Source of the DNA: a virus
Lineage: Duplodnaviria; Caudoviricetes
Strand: one strand, 5' to 3'
DNA: 64,000 bases
IMG/VR virus record: IMGVR_UViG_3300001528_000580
Span: 32,001-96,000 of that record
Shown: positions 12,702-60,114 of the stretch, piece after piece
Numbering within the stretch: position 1 is the first letter of the stretch
Layout of the letters: the number at the start of each line of letters is the position of its first letter
Position numbers and translations under genes: made by a program
Notes under the pieces: model-generated
Database searches by the model: none
Seen by the model: the letters and a program-made list of their open reading frames with translations, nothing else
What the model was told of the DNA's origin: nothing

Positions 12702-13196
12702 ATAAAAATTTTAGCGAAAAATGATCTAACCAATGAACAGGTTAGAGCGATTGACGAAAATGGTGTTCAATTGGGCGTTATTTCAATGTATAAGGCGTTT
12801 GAGGTTGCTTTAAGTAGAAACTTGGACTTGGCATTGGTTTCAGAAAACATAAGCCCTAAAGTCGTTCGTATTGTAAATTATGGCAAAATAAAATATGAAC
12901 AGAAGAAGAATAAGAAAAATCAAAAAAGTAATGAAGTAAAAACAAAAGAAATTAAGTTTGGTTTAAATGTTGGAGACAATGATTATAAAATTAAACTTAA
13001 TAAGATTATCGAATTACTTGAAGATAATTGTAAAGTAAGAGTTTATTTAGTATTAAAAGGTAGAGAAATAATACATAAAGATTTGGCTTTTGAATTTATG
13101 AACAAAATAATCAATGATTTAAAAGAGCATGGAAAAACAGAAGATAAACTATCATTAGTTGGTAGAAATATAATAATAAATTTTACAAAGGTGTAA
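12702..13196 (+). CDS. infC: translation initiation factor IF-3 with non-AUG start
   Basis: In-frame extension upstream of the tracked ORF gives NEQVRAIDENGVQLGVIS...LDLALVS...RIVNYGKIKYEQKK...KEIKF...KGRE; AAGGAG at 12688-12693 then ATC/ATA/ATT, no in-frame ATG. Confidence 0.9.
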   Translation: MKILAKNDLTNEQVRAIDENGVQLGVISMYKAFEVALSRNLDLALVSENISPKVVRIVNYGKIKYEQKKNKKNQKSNEVKTKEIKFGLNVGDNDYKIKLNKIIELLEDNCKVRVYLVLKGREIIHKDLAFEFMNKIINDLKEHGKTEDKLSLVGRNIIINFTKV

Positions 13197-18382: not shown

Positions 18383-19507
18383 TCAGACGGCTGTTGTCGA
18401 TTGACAACAGCCTACCTTAAACGAAGATGCCCCTTCGTTATATATATTAAAACTAGCATTACGATCTCTATCATGATGAGTGGAACATGCAGAGCATGTC
18501 CACTCTCTATCACTTAACTTGAGATCTTTATTTATAAATCCACATTTACTACAAGTTTTGCTACTTGGAAAATAACGGTTGATAAAATATATATTTTTTT
18601 TATATTGAGAACATTTATTTTTAAGAATTTGTAAAAATTGATAGAATCCTAAGTCATAAATTTTTCTTCCGAATCTTTTACTTATAGCTTGTAAATCTAA
18701 ATTTTCAAAAAAGAAGTTATCATATTTTTTAACTAAAGTTAAAGCTAATTTATTATGAAAATCTAATCTTTTATTATAAATTTTTTTGTGTAAACGAGCT
18801 AATTTAATTTTAGCTTTTTTATAATTATTGCTTCCTTTTTTCTTTTTAGATAAATTATTACTTAATTTTCTTAATTTAGCTATGTTTTCTAATAAATATA
18901 ATGGAGATTCTATATCTTCATAATCATTGCTTATTAAAAATGTTTTTAATCCAAAGTCATATCCAACAGATTTATCTGTTTTATCAATAACTTTTTCATC
19001 TTTATAATCAGTAATTACTACAATATAATATTCATTTAAATTATTTCTACTTACGCTTATCCTTTTTACTTTTCCTAATATTTCTTGACTTTTACTATAT
19101 TTATATATCCTATCTTTTATCTTTATTTTATTATTATCTAATATTTTAAAACCAGCTTTTTTTAATATCAATGATTTATAAAACTTACTCTTTTTAAATT
19201 TTGGCGGTCTGCTTTTTATATTTTTCTTTAAATTGCTGAAAAATAATTTATATCCCTTATCGATACGTTCAGTAACTTCTTGTAAAGCATCTATTGGTAT
19301 TTCTTTTAAATAATTGAATTTTTCTGTTTTTTTAAGTTTTGTTAAATGTTTTTGTAATTGATACATATTTAACATTTTATTATATCTTCTATAATATCTT
19401 TTATGAAGTTTTATACAATGATTATACCAATATCCACATACAGTTATCAAATTTGATAACTGATCATTGTTTTTATTTTTGTATAATTTGTATTTATATG
19501 CTTTCAT
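18383..19507 (-). CDS. tnpB: TnpB RNA-guided endonuclease
   Basis: N-terminal KAYKYKLY; RuvC motifs GYDFG, FFENL, DRDRNA; Zn finger CSKC...CSAC. Confidence 0.95.
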   Translation of the reverse strand: MKAYKYKLYKNKNNDQLSNLITVCGYWYNHCIKLHKRYYRRYNKMLNMYQLQKHLTKLKKTEKFNYLKEIPIDALQEVTERIDKGYKLFFSNLKKNIKSRPPKFKKSKFYKSLILKKAGFKILDNNKIKIKDRIYKYSKSQEILGKVKRISVSRNNLNEYYIVVITDYKDEKVIDKTDKSVGYDFGLKTFLISNDYEDIESPLYLLENIAKLRKLSNNLSKKKKGSNNYKKAKIKLARLHKKIYNKRLDFHNKLALTLVKKYDNFFFENLDLQAISKRFGRKIYDLGFYQFLQILKNKCSQYKKNIYFINRYFPSSKTCSKCGFINKDLKLSDREWTCSACSTHHDRDRNASFNIYNEGASSFKVGCCQSTTAV

Positions 19508-29184: not shown

Positions 29185-29426
29185 TTATAAAACATTGAGT
29201 TGGTAAAATTTACCAACTCTTTTTTTGCTTGAAAGTTATATTAATATTTAAATATAATTATCGATAATAATATACATGTTGTAGTTGTATATATGGATAT
29301 ATTTAAATGAATAAAAAAATAATCTGATTTTTTTGAATCTTGACTTGTATTTTTCTAAATGTGGTGTATAGTAAACAATGTAACAGGGAAAGCAACAACT
29401 ACAATAAAGAATGAAAGGTTAAGAGA

Positions 29427-41162: not shown

Positions 41163-41181
41163 AATTTCTACTTATGTAGAT
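41163..41181 (+). CRISPR. solitary Cas12a (type V-A)-like repeat AATTTCTACTTATGTAGAT
   Basis: Matches the mature Cas12a handle AAUUUCUACU-NNN-GUAGAU. Confidence 0.75.
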
Positions 41182-41322
41182 AAACTCACAGGAGAAATGG
41201 AAAATGAACATCGACTACGCCGCAAATACAAACATTCACCCTCCGTAACGTTTAATTAACCTTTTTTTAACTTAAATAATAATGATTAGATTTTTTTAGT
41301 TTTTCTTTTGATTGTTTCTTTT

Positions 41323-41341
41323 AATTTCTACTCGTGTAGAT
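41323..41341 (+). CRISPR. solitary Cas12a-like repeat AATTTCTACTCGTGTAGAT
   Basis: Same handle; only loop bases differ. Confidence 0.75.
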
Positions 41342-41419
41342 ACTAAGACAAAAAGTAATCAGGATAATCTTCCAAATGATGAAATTTTGTTAAATAAAAG
41401 TAAATAATCAGCCGTTGAT

Positions 41420-41495
41420 GCGTTCTTAACTCAGTCGGTAGAGTATCACCCTTTTAAGGTGAGAGTCATGGGTTCGAGTCCCATAGAACGTACCA
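41420..41495 (+). tRNA. trnK: tRNA-Lys(TTT)
   Basis: GCGTTCT/AGAACGT acceptor, TCACC-CTTTTAA-GGTGA anticodon arm, GGTTCGAGTCC, encoded CCA. Confidence 0.95.
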
Positions 41496-51339: not shown

Positions 51340-51588
51340 GAATAGTAAAAATGCAAGGAATTTATCTTTGCATTTTTGTTTTAACATTTTATGATTATAA
51401 ATTAATATTATTATCGATAATAATATAATATGATATAATCACTTTCCAAAAATGATTGTGATACTAAACAAAAAAATATTGACTTTTTTCATTTTAACAC
51501 TTGAAAAATCATTGTTTGGATGTATATTTATATTAGAAAAGAGAAACAAGGGGTTTCTCTAAAACGACAAACCATAGTGGAGGTAATT

Positions 51589-54327: not shown

Positions 54328-54531
54328 ATTTTTTTCAAAATTGAACTTGAAAAACCAAAATCATGTGTTATATTAAGTTTTGTTGACAGAGAAAAGCAGT
54401 TGTGAAAACAATACATATCAAAGTCAATAAAAAAAATGAAAAAAAGTTCTGAATTGAACTTGAAAAAAACAAAACTCGATGTATATTGAGTAATGTGACA
54501 GGGAAAACCTGATGCTGATTGAAAAAAATTA

Positions 54532-54778
54532 AACTTATGAGCGGTAGGCTTAGAAGTAGCCATCCGATAATGAGTGAAAGGAACCACCAATTAGTGCAAA
54601 ATGTCAAGAAATATCTAATGGTTCAATTATAAACGACTTAGAATCGATAAACTTGATTCAAGGTATATGTTGATGATGTGCATTTGGTAAAATGGGAATA
54701 AGCATGGTTAATGACCATCACCCAGATTAGATAATACTATGGGGTCGCTTTCTTTGGTGTAATAACACATCATAAGTT
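54532..54778 (+). ncRNA. ncRNA resembling the 23S rRNA uL11-binding domain (H43/H44) with a large insertion, copy 1
   Basis: GTAGGCTTAGAAGTAGCCATC (54544-54564) and GTGTAATAAC (54757-54766), closed by AACTTATGA/TCATAAGTT. Confidence 0.7.
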
Positions 54779-54800
54779 CTTTTTTATAAATGCTGTTTGA

Positions 54801-54819
54801 AATTTCTACTTATGTAGAT
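54801..54819 (+). CRISPR. solitary Cas12a-like repeat AATTTCTACTTATGTAGAT
   Basis: Identical to the 41163 copy. Confidence 0.75.
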
Positions 54820-54828
54820 AAAATTATT

Positions 54829-55127
54829 AGAATGTCAAAACTTTTAATTTGTGAAATTTTGTGAGTTGGACTATTATTGTTATAACTCAATAATGAAAAT
54901 AGTAACAAATGAACCGACAAGTTGAATATAACATGTCGATGAAAGTATCTTGCGAGTGTGGTTTGGTGACACCTTCTGCGAGTATTTCGTGGAGATAGAG
55001 GTTCGATTCCTACATGAAAAATCGAAAGTATTGTGATAGCAATTATAATTTGCTAATGTCTTCGGACGATCATTAAGTTGAGGCGCATAAATACTTAATG
55101 ATGATAATGTCACTATCACGGCATTCT
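54829..55127 (+). ncRNA. unclassified structured RNA
   Basis: Terminal stem AGAATGTC/GGCATTCT, T-loop GGTTCGATTCC, GTCTTCGGAC tetraloop hairpin; no credible ORF. Confidence 0.45.
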
Positions 55128-55143
55128 TTTTTTAGATTTAAAT

Positions 55144-55219
55144 GGACCGTTAGCTCAGTGGTTAGAGCAGGAAACTCATAATTTCTTGGTCGGGGGTTCA
55201 AGTCCCTCACGGTCCACCA
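55144..55219 (+). tRNA. trnI: tRNA with CAT anticodon, probably tRNA-Ile2 (lysidine, reads AUA)
   Basis: GGACCGT/ACGGTCC acceptor (paired 1-72, so not initiator), C4-G69/C5-G68 TilS-type determinants, encoded CCA; elongator Met not excluded. Confidence 0.85.
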
Positions 55220-55652
55220 TTTAAAATTCCCATCTACTCGATGTAAAGAGTCGGCAAAACATCTAACGCCGTTAAATTGATGTGTTTTCCTCAAGGCTAA
55301 CGAGGTTTTTTACCAACAGTTTTTAAAATTAAAACGGTTGGCTCTGATGAGATGGGTTATAAACCTAATTGGTGAGTAACCGAAACATAAAGGTACAGTC
55401 TTTACCTTTAGTGATGGTAAAACATAGACACAATTTTGACGTTAATCATGTTAGCGTTGCTCCATGCTATTAGCTAGTCATGAGTTATGGATGCTGTTGG
55501 TTAGTAGGAGCGCAATTAGCTCTGACGGGGTTCAACTCCCTGCAATCCAGTTTCTTCAAGTGGTTGCAAACTCTTGAAGATGCTCTTGAGCATTGAGCAA
55601 AAGCGAAAGCAACATAGATGACAGCTTGGAAAGACAAGCGATTATGATTTTT

Positions 55653-55711
55653 AGTCAGAGGGCATTGGTCAAGACCAATCGATTACGTGGTGTAGTGAAG
55701 CATATCTGACT
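55653..55711 (+). ncRNA. permuted tRNA-like core with vestigial acceptor stem
   Basis: 3' half TCAGA-GGGC-ATTGG-TCAAGA-CCAAT precedes 5' half TG-GTGT-AGTGAA-GCAT-A-TCTGA-CT. Confidence 0.45.
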
Positions 55712-55844
55712 TTTGTTTTCCAAATTTTTCTCTCTTTTTGGTTGGCTAGTAGATAAATATTTATCTACTAGCTTTTTTATTTTCAAACTATTGAATTTAT
55801 TGTATATTGTGTTATATTATATTAAATTCATACAAGGAAAAATA

Positions 55845-56393
55845 ATGCGTAGAAAAGAAATACATAAACCAGATCATCCAAATGCATATAAAAATGGTAA
55901 TATTTTAGAATATGTTTATATTGCATCAAAAAAATTAAATAGACCATTATTGAAAGGTGAGATTGTTCATCATATAGATGAAAATCCATTTAATAATGAT
56001 GAAGATAACCTAATGGTATTTGCTACAAAATCAGATCATAATAAATTTCATGCAAATGGACTTGATTTTAACATAGTTGAAAAATTAAGTAATGGTTCTT
56101 ATAAAATAAAAGATGATGTTATGCTAATAAGTAGCAAAGAATTTATTTGTGAATATTGTCATAAGAGATTTATTGCAGAAAAAATAAATCATAAGAAAAA
56201 TAAAATATATTGTTCAATTGAATGTTCAAATAAAGATAAAGAAAAGTTCGATATTCCAATTGAACAATTAAAAGAACTAGTTAAAACATATAATTTAACC
56301 AAAATAGGAAAAATGTTTGGTGTTTCTGACAATGCAATCAGGAAAAGATGTATTAAAAATAACATCGATTTTAAAAATAAGAAAAAATCATAA
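55845..56393 (+). CDS. HNH homing endonuclease with Zn finger and HTH
   Basis: HPNA..NG, VHHIDENPFNNDEDNL; IGKMFGVSDNAIRKRC. Confidence 0.85.
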   Translation: MRRKEIHKPDHPNAYKNGNILEYVYIASKKLNRPLLKGEIVHHIDENPFNNDEDNLMVFATKSDHNKFHANGLDFNIVEKLSNGSYKIKDDVMLISSKEFICEYCHKRFIAEKINHKKNKIYCSIECSNKDKEKFDIPIEQLKELVKTYNLTKIGKMFGVSDNAIRKRCIKNNIDFKNKKKS

Positions 56394-56491
56394 AAAAATT
56401 CAATTTTTTTATTTTGGGAGCTTGAAAAAAACAATATTTGGTGTATATTAAGTATTGTAACAGGGAAACCTGATGCTATTTGAAAAATTAT

Positions 56492-56569
56492 AGAGGTGCT
56501 TGGAAAAACTTTCAACGAGTAGACTTTTAATCTAAATACGTGCAAACAGGTTTTTTCGCTTATTCCTCT
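56492..56569 (+). ncRNA. scaffold RNA displaying a tRNA-Lys(UUU) anticodon stem-loop
   Basis: TAGA-CTTTTAA-TCTA inside the same AGAGGTG...TTCAACG / ACGT...ATTCCTCT frame as 58105-58244. Confidence 0.6.
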
Positions 56570-56657
56570 TTTTTTCAAATATTTTTAAAAATAATACTTG
56601 AAAAAATCAATATTAGGTGTATATTAAGTATTGTAATAGGGAGACATGATATTTGAA

Positions 56658-56725
56658 AATTTCTACTTATGTAGATAAACAAGGAAAACTTGAGGTTGAT
56701 TAAAAAAATTTCTACTTATGTAGAT
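56658..56725 (+). CRISPR. two Cas12a-like repeats separated by 30 nt (mini-array)
   Basis: AATTTCTACTTATGTAGAT at 56658-56676 and 56707-56725, just downstream of a promoter. Confidence 0.75.
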
Positions 56726-56987
56726 AAACATTAGAAACAAATGGTGAAAAGCCGTCAGGAATCTACCCATCACGCACCATGATTAGTGATGTGGTTTACT
56801 GAAAACGAGGTACGAAAGAACAGAGTCTTTTTGAGTATATCTCATAAGCTATAGCGTACAACGAGGCGATGCTAGTGAAATGCAATAAAAGTAGCGGTCA
56901 TGGTACAACCTGCATAGGATGTGGAGTAGACTGAAATATATCAGCTACGTATCAAGAAATTGATTAAACATGTAATTTCTAATGTTT
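56726..56987 (+). ncRNA. unclassified structured RNA
   Basis: 12-bp terminal stem AAACATTAGAAA/TTTCTAATGTTT, several GNRA-type hairpins, GC-richer than flanks. Confidence 0.5.
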
Positions 56988-57330
56988 TTTGCTCTTATGA
57001 GCTGATGGACTTGTACTCAATTGCAACTTAACATTATTCATAATGTTGATGTAAAAGGTCTGACGTACAGTACCTAAAATAAAGTAATGACCTGCCTAGA
57101 TTGAAGCACTAGAAACTTATGCTTCACAGCTTTATGTCGATATTGAGCTGTTTATCCGTAGGATAAAAAATAATCGGTAATCCAAGATGTAATTCTTAGC
57201 ATTGCAAGCATACTAAGTGAGGATTTAAAACATTAATAACTTGATGCTGATAGGTAAGCTATCACTTTTTCAAGATTTTTTTATATTTATCATATATGTG
57301 TAAAATATAAATAATGTTGATTGAAAATTT

Positions 57331-57622
57331 TGTCAAAAGTTGAAATGTTGGATTAGAGGCATCCATCATCTAAGGAGTAACCCACGACATTGAACATTGC
57401 AACTGTAATCACTGATACTTAAAAAGGAAACACTTACAATAAACCAGTGAGCCATAATTAACTGAATAATGACAAAAACTGTTAGGTTGGTATAAGTGAT
57501 AACTTTAAAAGAATGTGATATGCTTACATGTCCTAATTCAGTAGGAAGGTTCGATGGCTAACGAGGAGCATGAGATTACATGCTGAAAGGTTTTTGGCAT
57601 AAAAGCACATCAAGTTTTGACA
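57331..57622 (+). ncRNA. ncRNA resembling the 23S rRNA uL11-binding domain with a large insertion, copy 2
   Basis: GTTGGATTAGAGGCATCCATCATCTAAGGAGT (from 57347) and GCATAAAAGC (57597-57606), closed by TGTCAAAAgTTGA/TCAAgTTTTGACA. Confidence 0.65.
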
Positions 57623-58104
57623 TTTTTATTCATACAATATAATTGTATAGCTATCATGCTAGCTAACTCGTGATACATCAGTGGTTAAAAGGAGCTGTAT
57701 ATCACTGAAAGAGTTTGAACTTACAGCTTGAAAAACTTGATCATGATTGTGGTGCGATAGTTTTTCTTCTTGACCCACACATGGAGTTGGTTAGCTACCA
57801 ATACTCCATGATTTTTATGAAAAAAGTTCAGAAATGAGCTTGAAAATAAAAAAATCAATGCTATATTATAGTATTGAAAGAAAAAAATAGACGATAGCAT
57901 GGAGACGTTTTTCTTGAAATAAAGAAAAATTTAGACAATGCAACTAACTTGAAAATTTGATGGTTCAATCAAGTTACGGAGCTATTCTGAAAGAGATAGC
58001 AATTATTATCAGAAATCATTTAGCTTATGGATGTGAAAGCTATGAACTTATGTTCTAAAGTATGTCAAAGAGATATATAATCATTTTTGCTGATTGAAAA
58101 TTAT

Positions 58105-58244
58105 AGAGGTGGCATAAAAACGTTCAACGCTGATAACGTCGAGGCTGTAGGTTCGAGTCCTATTATTATAGATAGATAATATCAAACTATAATATAGCTC
58201 AATTGGGTAGAGCACGTAAAAAATGTTTTTATAGTAATTCCTCT
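58105..58244 (+). ncRNA. circularly permuted tRNA-Ile(GAT)-like RNA
   Basis: 3' part (58127-58171) precedes 5' part (58188-58216); all four stems pair when rejoined. Confidence 0.75.
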
Positions 58245-58258
58245 TTTTATAAATTCAT

Positions 58259-58347
58259 GTCTGGGTATGCGAATTGGCATAGCAAATTGACTTAAAATCA
58301 ATTGTATTCCGAAAGGTATGAGGGTTCGAGTCCCTCCCCAGATACCA
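58259..58347 (+). tRNA. trnL: tRNA-Leu(TAA)
   Basis: GTCTGGG/CCCAGAT acceptor, ATTGA-CTTAAAA-TCAAT anticodon arm, long variable arm, GGTTCGAGTCC, encoded CCA. Confidence 0.92.
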
Positions 58348-58492
58348 TTTTTACCCAAGAGATTAAATAAAAAATAATCTCTTGGGTTTTTTTATGTATT
58401 TTTCTTAAATTAACGGTTCGAGTCCAGTTTTAATATTTTTTTATATTTTCTTTTATATGAAAAATTTTAATATGAAAGGAAGATATTAAAAA

Positions 58493-59467
58493 ATGACTAA
58501 ATATACTTTAGATGAATTTAGAGATGCAGTAGCTAACAGCAATAATATAAGACAAGTATGTTTAAAATTAAATATATCAGCTTATGGTGGTAGTTATGAA
58601 TATATAAAAAGAAAAATAAAAAAATATAATATTGATACAAGCCATTTTAATAAAAAATCAACAAAAAGAATTACTTGTTTTTCATTACCATTAGATATAA
58701 TTTTAGTCAAGGGAAGTTTTTATACAAATACATCTGTTTTAAAAAATAGATTAATTGCAAATGGAATATTAGAAAACAAATGTTATAGTTGTCAAAGGAC
58801 AAAGTGTGAAATTAATGGAAAAATGATAAATATGCCATTAGAATTACATCATATTGATGGTGACAGAAACAATAATGAAATAGAAAATTTAACTTTATTA
58901 TGTCCAATATGCCATAATTTGACTACTAATTTCAGGGGAAAGAAAAAAGTTAAAAAATTGTATATGTATTGTAAAAAATGTCATAAAGAAATTAGACAAA
59001 ATAAGTATGAATTATGTAAAGATTGTTATGTTGAAGAAAATTATCCAAGAGAAACAAAAGTATATCCAGCGTTTTGTTCAGAATGTGGAAGAGAACTTAA
59101 TAAATCAAAATCAGGATTATGTAGATCGTGTATTAATAAGAAAATGACTACACTTAATAAACCAAGTAAAGAAGTATTAGAAAAAGAGATACAAGAGAAT
59201 AGCTTTCTAGCATTAGGAAGAAAATATGGAGTTTCAGATAATGCTGTTAGAAAATGGTGCAAACAATATGGTATTGATTTTAAACATGGAATAAGAAAAG
59301 AATCTTTACAAGGATTAAAAAAAGGCAGAGAAACTCAAGCATATCAAGCAAAATTAAAAAGAATATGTCCTAAATGTGGGAAAAAGAAATCACCAGATTC
59401 AGAATTGTGTAGAACATGTTATTTAGAAGAAGAATTAAAGAAAAAACAAGCAACATATTTAAATTAA
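58493..59467 (+). CDS. HNH endonuclease with multiple Zn fingers and HTH
   Basis: CYSC...LELHHIDGDRNNNEIENLTLLCPICH; LGRKYGVSDNAVRKWC. Confidence 0.88.
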   Translation: MTKYTLDEFRDAVANSNNIRQVCLKLNISAYGGSYEYIKRKIKKYNIDTSHFNKKSTKRITCFSLPLDIILVKGSFYTNTSVLKNRLIANGILENKCYSCQRTKCEINGKMINMPLELHHIDGDRNNNEIENLTLLCPICHNLTTNFRGKKKVKKLYMYCKKCHKEIRQNKYELCKDCYVEENYPRETKVYPAFCSECGRELNKSKSGLCRSCINKKMTTLNKPSKEVLEKEIQENSFLALGRKYGVSDNAVRKWCKQYGIDFKHGIRKESLQGLKKGRETQAYQAKLKRICPKCGKKKSPDSELCRTCYLEEELKKKQATYLN

Positions 59468-59541
59468 TTTAAACAATTATAAGTTATAGATATTATATTA
59501 ATATAACTATTAATAACTTATTTATTATAAGGATAAAAATA

Positions 59542-60114
59542 ATGTTAGATGATAATAAATTATACTGTATACAATGTGGTAAAGAAAGAGAATTAGGAAG
59601 AAGATATTGTAAAGAATGTCATAAAAAAGTTCAAAGAGAAAGATTCAGAGAAAAATATAAAACTAAAGGAAGATATAGATATACTATTACTTGTATGTTT
59701 TGTAATGAATTATATAATTTAGCGGTAAGAAAAGATCAAAAGTTTTGCGAAAATTGTTGGAAAGAGAGATTACAATTTATAACTAAATATCATTCGACAA
59801 ATCAATATGAAAATAAGTTTGGTCAAAATAAACATAGACAAATTGTAGAATCAATATTGAATAGAAAGTTGTTTTATAATGAAGTAGTTCATCATTTAGA
59901 TCATAATCCAATTAATAATTCTATTGATAATATTATAGTTTTAGAAAGAAAGGATCATATGGCATTACATAATTATTTATATGATTATGAATTTAAATTA
60001 TATAAATTACATGGAAAACAGTATAAAGAATATTGGAATGGAACAATAGAAAAAGATGTTACATTAAAATATCTTAATGAAAATAAAATAAATTATATTT
60101 CTTTTGAAAACTAA
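59542..60114 (+). CDS. HNH endonuclease with N-terminal Zn fingers
   Basis: HRQIVESILNRKL..NEVVHHLDHNPINNSIDN...H...H. Confidence 0.85.
   Translation: MLDDNKLYCIQCGKERELGRRYCKECHKKVQRERFREKYKTKGRYRYTITCMFCNELYNLAVRKDQKFCENCWKERLQFITKYHSTNQYENKFGQNKHRQIVESILNRKLFYNEVVHHLDHNPINNSIDNIIVLERKDHMALHNYLYDYEFKLYKLHGKQYKEYWNGTIEKDVTLKYLNENKINYISFEN

Follow-up and report, generated by a model that had tools for sequence, protein, structure and literature searches.

A non-coding RNA island of exchangeable cassettes in a megaphage genome, with modules resembling crRNA, tRNA and rRNA elements

Layout and expression signals of the island

The window analysed here is a 64,000-nt stretch of virus DNA, bases 32001-96000 of the IMG/VR record IMGVR_UViG_3300001528_000580, a 440,868-bp gut phage genome with terminal repeats, 25% G+C and 33 tRNA genes, one of them of the CTA suppressor type. 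About 4 kb of this window (54340-58347; window positions are given unless genome positions are named) form an island of non-coding RNA. It carries genuine tRNAs, hairpin handles of the kind found in the CRISPR RNA (crRNA) of Cas12a, tRNA-like RNAs built on one scaffold and two RNAs that copy helix 43 of 23S rRNA, all on the + strand. A first-pass annotation had described the stretch as an RNA-only operon of decoys against host immunity and translation control. The island itself is real, densely promoted and poor in open reading frames (ORFs), and its modules imitate crRNA, tRNA and rRNA elements. Its ORF list holds hardly any credible entry, the exception being an HNH homing-endonuclease gene at 55845-56393 (PF13392, E 8.5e-5; kept in relatives), so that the island is not made of RNA genes only. 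Reading frames hidden by an alternative genetic code were considered and rejected, as none of the codes opens ORFs in the island. The codon-usage score is a poor separator of coding from non-coding sequence in this AT-rich genome.

The phage (G000) was compared with a close lineage (L059-L062) and a distant lineage (L057 and L058). These relatives were reached only through exact-protein look-ups of homologues of a 127-amino-acid protein encoded upstream, which are 97% identical in the close and 59% identical in the distant lineage and lie on contigs syntenic with the window. An IMG/VR search with three proteins of the window or the phage returned no relatives. Scans with DNA patterns (the leader motif, the scaffold motif and an 18-mer of the second helix-43-like RNA) gave chance matches only, mostly in coding sequence.

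Five copies of the promoter CTTGAAAA-N-(TG)nTATATT are present on the + strand, at 54347, 54460, 56422, 56598 and 57840. Their layout is TTGAAA-16-TATATT, often with the TG extension. The stacked promoters of the first-pass annotation are thus borne out: the first two (P1, 54347-54374; P2, 54460-54487; repeat family D1) are of host type, stand in tandem and are kept in L059 and L057. The whole genome has about 17 copies, some of them ahead of protein genes. We read it as a promoter of the phage for the host polymerase, and probably an early one. P1 and P2 are followed by a first leader (54499-54525), read from the sequence as a hairpin CAGG-GAAAA-CCUG and then the boxA-like motif AUGCUGAUUGAAA. 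P3 and its hairpin/boxA-like leader occupy 56422-56487. The P4 segment (56598-56725) consists of the promoter, a leader, a Cas12a-type handle (handle 2, 56658-56676), a second leader copy and another handle (handle 3, 56707-56725). P5 lies at 57840-57867.

The first unit is closed by an intrinsic terminator with a 13-bp stem and a T run (55744-55783), and a middle terminator is found at about 57780-57812. The last unit ends, by sequence reading, in a terminator hairpin at 58350-58395 that gives an NsiR1-like terminator alignment. Because these three terminators and the HNH gene divide the stretch, it is not one operon, and the sequence is best read as at least four transcription units.

A leader unit, the hairpin CAGG-GAAA-CCUG followed by AUGCU(A/G)(U/A)UUGAAA, stands behind the promoters and again ahead of most modules. 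Of the form TGHTNWTTGAAAA the 64-kb window holds five copies where 1.3 are expected, all of them inside the island and on the + strand. In Bacillus subtilis rRNA operons, the boxA-like consensus AUGAUCUUUGAAA follows a small hairpin and binds NusB, and hairpin plus boxA leaders of NusB/S10 antitermination are also located upstream of CRISPR arrays (PMC13753749). The island motif agrees with this consensus at 11 of 13 positions. The arrangement is also that of an rRNA operon leader, a small hairpin and then a boxA-like 13-mer ahead of untranslated RNA. It differs in that the island repeats the motif before nearly every module, at cassette junctions. From this resemblance we infer rRNA-operon-style antitermination and a Bacillota-type host. 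The leaders probably recruit NusB/S10 antitermination, by analogy with the Bacillus operons, and a host from the Bacillota or Clostridia is probable. The leader sequence CUGAUG was also considered as a hammerhead core; it was rejected, as there is no stem II and no Rfam match.

Cas12a-type handles and the Cas12a locus of the phage

The 19-mer AATTTCTACTTATGTAGAT is present exactly at 54801, 56658, 56707 and 41163, and with a variant loop at 41323. Five matches compare with 0.11 expected, and there are no others in the 441-kb genome. The Cas12a handles claimed earlier for the island are confirmed as three exact copies, with two more at 41 kb. The latter belong to a second + strand cluster (41163-41495), outside the interval first flagged, in which they are followed by a tRNA-Lys(UUU) at 41420-41495. 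The RNA is predicted to fold as a 5-bp handle hairpin with the stem UCUAC/GUAGA and the loop UUAU, as it does in handle 1 (54801-54819), and this canonical stem is kept in all three lineages. Handles 2 and 3 follow P4 at a distance of 60-110 nt, within the roughly 250 bp expected for the promoter of a solitary repeat unit; handle 1, at about 340 nt from P2, belongs to the predicted transcript of that promoter.

The exact 19-mer is the 3′ end of type V-A repeats in genuine arrays whose period is 62-65 nt; these arrays belong to Clostridia, Clostridiaceae, Patescibacteria, Succinivibrio and other metagenome-assembled genomes. It also occurs as a promoter-proximal solitary unit in a group of phages of about 55 kb and in two unrelated large phages. 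Phages of 640 kb and 224 kb with the same handle were considered as relatives of the island and rejected as not related. In L059 (position 7568) a Cas12a handle with the loop UUUU is found in the 5′ untranslated region of a HARE-HTH gene; the matching site of the window (about 51530-51550) has an unrelated hairpin instead.

Solitary repeat units of this kind are known from other phages. Racrs (RNA anti-CRISPRs), three of type V-A among them (RacrVA1-3), and non-targeting crRNA lower CRISPR interference by competition (Camara-Wilpert et al. 2023, PMC10651486), and Cracr is a crRNA-like RNA whose guide also matches the cas12a promoter (bioRxiv 10.1101/2024.10.29.618823). The island handles share with both that they are repeat-like units in a phage, outside an array (the only array of the genome is 140 kb away), that they match the repeat in sequence and structure and that strong promoters stand nearby. 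The Cas12a-bound hairpin is copied exactly, and one pair of handles forms a mini-array. They differ from Racrs in having the 3′ 19-21 nt of the repeat only, against the full 36 nt, in being embedded in long multi-module RNAs rather than in promoter-to-terminator minigenes, in their number of five copies and in that the phage owns a Cas12a with an array. A Cracr is defined by a spacer-like part that matches a cas promoter at 9-10 or more positions proximal to the protospacer-adjacent motif (PAM); a search of the phage genome, its cas12a promoter included, gave no such match.

The Cas12a in question (1186 amino acids, genome 227292-230852, outside the window) has the REC1, REC2, RuvC and NUC domains and aligns end to end with solved Cas12a structures (E 1e-136). 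It is followed by an array of about 13 repeats, GTTTAAACATATATACTAATTTCTAATTTGTTAGAT, in a locus (genome 227292-231850) 140 kb from the island. With the full domain set and an adjoining repeat-spacer array this is a type V-A locus. Its 12 spacers are richer in G+C than the phage genome and have no match in the sequences compared. Because the phage encodes this enzyme and array, the earlier claim that the handles titrate the host's Cas12a becomes one of two live readings.

The other is that the handles serve the phage's own Cas12a, as remote early orphan guides, as regulatory crRNA-like RNAs or as cutting sites by which long transcripts are trimmed. A full-length enzyme with its array in the same genome speaks for it, and every handle is located on the transcribed strand within an RNA unit. 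Cas12a enzymes also tolerate handle variants in which the stem is kept. Against it, the orphan handles carry UCUAC/GUAGA in three lineages, whereas the handle of the phage array has the stem UCUAA/UUAGA, another loop (UUUG) and an upstream half that is not common to them. For the would-be guides, neither the phage nor its cas12a promoter offers a PAM-flanked match, and the guides differ between relatives. We consider service to the phage's own enzyme possible, yet rather unlikely. As the handle differs from the phage's own repeat and no target or conserved sequence lies behind the handles, the favoured reading of the sequences is that of a competitor or decoy for a canonical-repeat Cas12a of the host or of a rival phage. 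The handle as the mark of a former target, with a guide against sibling phages, was rejected: the sibling flank of the matching stretch lacks a TTTV PAM.

tRNA-like scaffold RNAs and helix-43 look-alikes

Two genuine tRNAs were found in the island, as claimed by the first-pass annotation: tRNA-Met(CAU) at 55144-55219 (70.6 bits) and tRNA-Leu(UAA) at 58259-58347 (51.8 bits), both called by ARAGORN and above the Rfam tRNA cut-off of 29 bits. In L059 (12845-13290) the anticodon region of the tRNA-Leu(UAA) is split by an insert of about 330 nt, which scores 37.1 bits (cut-off 50; E 6.8e-8) on the group I intron model; the copy of the window and that of L057 are without the insert.

A motif search identified five RNAs of one frame in the genome: GAGGUG, an A/U-rich stem of 9-12 bp, UCAACG, a cargo, the return strand and AUUCCUC. 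Across the three lineages this scaffold family has eight distinct members, in which the frame is kept and the stems covary. The anticodon loops displayed are those of Lys (UUU), Ile (GAU), Thr (UGU) and Cys (GCA). In the first island member (S1, 56493-56568) the cargo is no more than the loop of tRNA-Lys(UUU), CUUUUAA, on a stem of 4 bp. S1 is present in all three lineages with an invariant loop, and in L057 three of the four anticodon-stem pairs are changed on both sides. The anticodon display RNA proposed earlier is thereby confirmed as a conserved, covarying element.

The second member (S2, 58106-58243), seen with ARAGORN, Rfam and the motif search, is a circularly permuted cloverleaf like tRNA-Ile(GAU). 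The anticodon arm (GAU) comes first and the T arm second, then an acceptor stem of 7 bp that a loop closes, and last the D arm; the permutation is at the hinge between the D and anticodon arms. Part of it is called tRNA-Ile by ARAGORN (at 58101); it scores 23.6 bits as a tRNA, below the cut-off, and 30.6 bits on the YrlA model. The L059 homologue displays UGU in place of GAU, has a shorter closing loop, scores 40.1 bits on YrlA and differs from S2 by five compensatory pairs, two in the T stem and three in the acceptor stem. Outside the window, at genome 204076-204451, three more scaffold copies stand in tandem beside tRNA-Ile and tRNA-Gln. One carries a permuted body whose acceptor loop contains ACCA; the bodies in the other two are unpermuted and resemble Ile(GAU) and Cys(GCA) tRNAs. 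Two permuted tRNA-like RNAs had been claimed for the island. S2 is one; the other candidate, at 55487-55549, resembles a tRNA in unpermuted order: its T arm is canonical, its anticodon loop is not, and its D arm is weak. ARAGORN does not call it, and it has a weak mascRNA match (19.6 bits). The other permuted copy is the one at genome 204076.

The covariation indicates that the tRNA-like features are under structural selection, and it supports the scaffold family as a new group of tRNA mimics. As they have no free acceptor end, these RNAs would not be chargeable. The closest known architecture is that of YrlA (RF02553), a Y RNA of bacteria and phages with a tRNA-like domain and a Ro-binding motif (PMC4201824). 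Both have a T arm, a loop-closed acceptor stem and a D arm on a long stem formed by the two RNA ends. The scaffold RNAs differ in that they also hold an anticodon arm, and in that other cargoes are an anticodon arm alone or unpermuted tRNA bodies. Since the phage has no Ro60 gene and the scaffold RNAs no Ro-binding motif, we regard the family as YrlA-like in architecture and not as a member.

It is conceivable that the scaffold RNAs act not as baits but as cofactors of the Y-RNA type, in which a protein-binding stem bears a tRNA-like domain, with RNA repair or surveillance enzymes (RtcB, an RNA ligase, host Ro60/PNPase) as partners. YrlA has the same arm order and occurs in phages (PMC4201824), and S2 and its homologue both align with it end to end. 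Genes for RtcB and an Rnl2-type RNA ligase are neighbours on the minus strand of the phage (genome 161977-165233, within 3 kb of one another), an arrangement resembling an RNA-repair module; it fits an RNA-cleavage conflict and equally a Y-RNA-like repair role of the scaffold RNAs. On the other side, RtcB is more than 70 kb away, the 441-kb genome has no match to a TROVE/Ro60 gene, the Ro-binding motif GNCGAA is absent from the scaffold RNAs, their scores are far under the YrlA gathering score of 69 bits, and S1 consists of an anticodon arm only. A cofactor role appears improbable.

Phage tRNAs are known to counter anticodon nucleases, as in T4 against PrrC and in the case of T5 tRNA-Lys and PARIS. 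The island resembles such clusters in that genuine tRNAs and tRNA-derived elements would share one early-expressed cluster in which the Lys(UUU) loop is prominent. The difference is that the look-alikes lack a free acceptor end and so cannot stand in for a cleaved tRNA in translation; any action against nucleases would be that of baits.

The remaining look-alikes resemble the GTPase-associated centre of 23S rRNA (helices 42-44, the uL11/thiopeptide site). The first (54533-54600, the module perhaps extending to about 54760) has a helix-43-like hairpin at 54541-54566 with flanks like those of the centre. The second (57331-57622), preceded by a boxA-like motif at 57315-57327, has a 13-bp closing stem, a helix-43-like hairpin at 57345-57369 and a body of about 200 nt. 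The 18-mer of Escherichia coli 23S rRNA 1062-1079 is found at 54547 with one mismatch and at 57350 with three, 0.01 being expected by chance; one of these three is a compensatory exchange of a C-G for an A-U pair. With a 60-mer of the Clostridium GTPase centre, the same two sites are the top two local matches on the strand genome-wide, with scores of 37 and 30 against maxima of 24-30 in ten shuffled genomes.

The similarity spans about positions 1057 to 1092 of 23S rRNA and takes in the helix-43 hairpin, its A1067 loop included, as well as some of the 43/44 junction. The helix-44 loop, which holds A1095, is not convincingly reproduced, its candidates being weak and having stems of only 3 bp; the closing of the junction is uncertain, as the three-way junction is not formed in the minimum-energy folds. 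The Rfam large-subunit rRNA model gave no match to either RNA, and the hairpins sit in RNAs of 70-290 nt with unrelated bodies. Of the two uL11-site mimics described in the first-pass annotation, the helix-43 copies stand as real, beyond chance; a full uL11 site is not supported. The proposed action on the stringent response or uL11 found no link: only the helix-43 part is present and the phage genome has no uL11 or L12 gene. The IF-3 gene invoked as a complement to the decoys exists (12771-13196), 41 kb upstream in another gene block and with no visible link to the island. Autoregulatory operators as the role of the rRNA and tRNA mimics were rejected as well, the phage being without a gene for uL11, L12 or Ro60.

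Two further RNAs belong to the island. A structured RNA of unassigned kind (54820-55143) has no ORF and is 93.6% identical in L059 and about 80% in L057. The long RNA behind handle 3 (56726-57275) has neither an ORF nor an Rfam match, and only 56994-57175 is common to L059.

Cassette turnover and the role of the island

From one relative to the next, whole modules come, go or replace one another at boxA-like junctions within a frame that is kept. The slot from the first leader to 54820 contains the first helix-43-like RNA and a handle in the present phage, is empty in L059 (the cassette 54532-54819 is missing) and in L057 is filled by an unrelated RNA of about 170 nt. A boxA-like motif forms the end of each cassette in this slot. 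Between the present phage and the distant L057 the second helix-43-like RNA is about 98% identical, yet the close L059 lacks it. Handles number five in the present phage, two in L059 and one in L057 in the regions compared; their loop also varies, and the P4 region of L059 has one handle against two here. The first-pass annotation had proposed to look for turnover of modules in related phages, and it is found in the form (present, absent, swapped) seen with accessory or arms-race cargo.

Such turnover could also be attributed to decay. Most of the non-tRNA elements would then be functionless debris, left where homing endonucleases had repeatedly rearranged a tRNA operon: tRNA genes in decay, captured fragments of rRNA or repeats, and spacer hairpins. 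Three HNH genes in or adjoining the island (two of them downstream, 58493-60114), degenerate T-arm fragments at about 55000, 57547 and 58415, and the coming and going of modules agree with this. The compensatory changes in anticodon, T and acceptor stems with invariant loops do not, nor do a frame kept in eight scaffold members, exact 19-nt copies in four of five handles and a leader motif carried by the modules themselves. We consider debris very improbable.

Outside the island, several other features of the window were recorded. An IS-type transposase gene (phrog_506, E 9e-91) at 18383-19507 on the minus strand runs opposite to an otherwise one-directional gene block. The segment 46000-47000 has 40% G+C against 25% for the genome, with ORFs overlapping on both strands. 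The region 27000-54000 is about 30% G+C against 21%, has short ORFs and bears further promoters of the island type at 29228, 34217, 40818, 50444 and 51500; it may contain further small RNAs.

Taken with the observed sequences, folds, covariation and turnover, the locus is best explained as an early-expressed island of exchangeable non-coding RNA cassettes of a megaphage. Molecular mimicry is its most likely role, a reading in which we place middling confidence. At least four units would be read from strong host-type promoters, and NusB/S10 antitermination would let the long untranslated transcripts reach completion. The cassettes would supply working tRNAs (Met, Leu), solitary Cas12a handles, scaffold RNAs and two helix-43-copying RNAs. 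The handles would load a canonical-repeat Cas12a with harmless non-targeting RNA, like a Racr or a non-targeting crRNA competitor, and the tRNA look-alikes would bait enzymes that act on tRNA anticodon loops or bodies.

Several points weigh against this explanation. Transcription, antitermination and every binding partner are deduced from sequence features. The intact Cas12a of the phage could equally bind the orphan handles. What lies behind the handles differs from relative to relative and has no target in the phage, so that no guide function is visible, and yet positive evidence for a decoy does not follow. The uL11 site is copied in helix 43 only, and the near-identity of the second helix-43-like RNA in the present phage and L057 may reflect recent exchange, not selection. 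Outside this phage group the RNA family did not turn up in the collections scanned, so that the evidence of conservation is limited to three lineages. A search for the host with 140 spacers from arrays having the same handle gave only matches resembling ribosome-binding sites. The multi-decoy interpretation of the first-pass annotation, in which each module would titrate a different host protein, is a reasonable proposal, weakened in the case of Cas12a by the phage's own enzyme and unsupported in those of uL11, the stringent response and IF-3. A more far-reaching version, speculative and quite unlikely in our estimate, would see in the island an RNA anti-defence integron of shuffled RNA-mimic cassettes with boxA-like junctions, holding the first rRNA (GTPase-centre) decoy, non-chargeable anticodon decoys and RNA anti-CRISPRs, with the phage's own Cas12a kept orthogonal through its changed stem.

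RNA counter-defence has so far been known mainly as single solitary CRISPR repeats. Here, look-alikes of crRNA, tRNA and rRNA are found in one locus, which combines expression signals in the style of an rRNA operon with cassette exchange among relatives. The presence of orphan canonical handles in a phage whose own Cas12a has a changed repeat raises the question of cross-talk between viral and cellular Cas12a. Should the modules prove to be baits, RNA mimicry would extend from CRISPR to tRNA- and ribosome-directed defences, with compact RNAs of 76 to 290 nt for each case.

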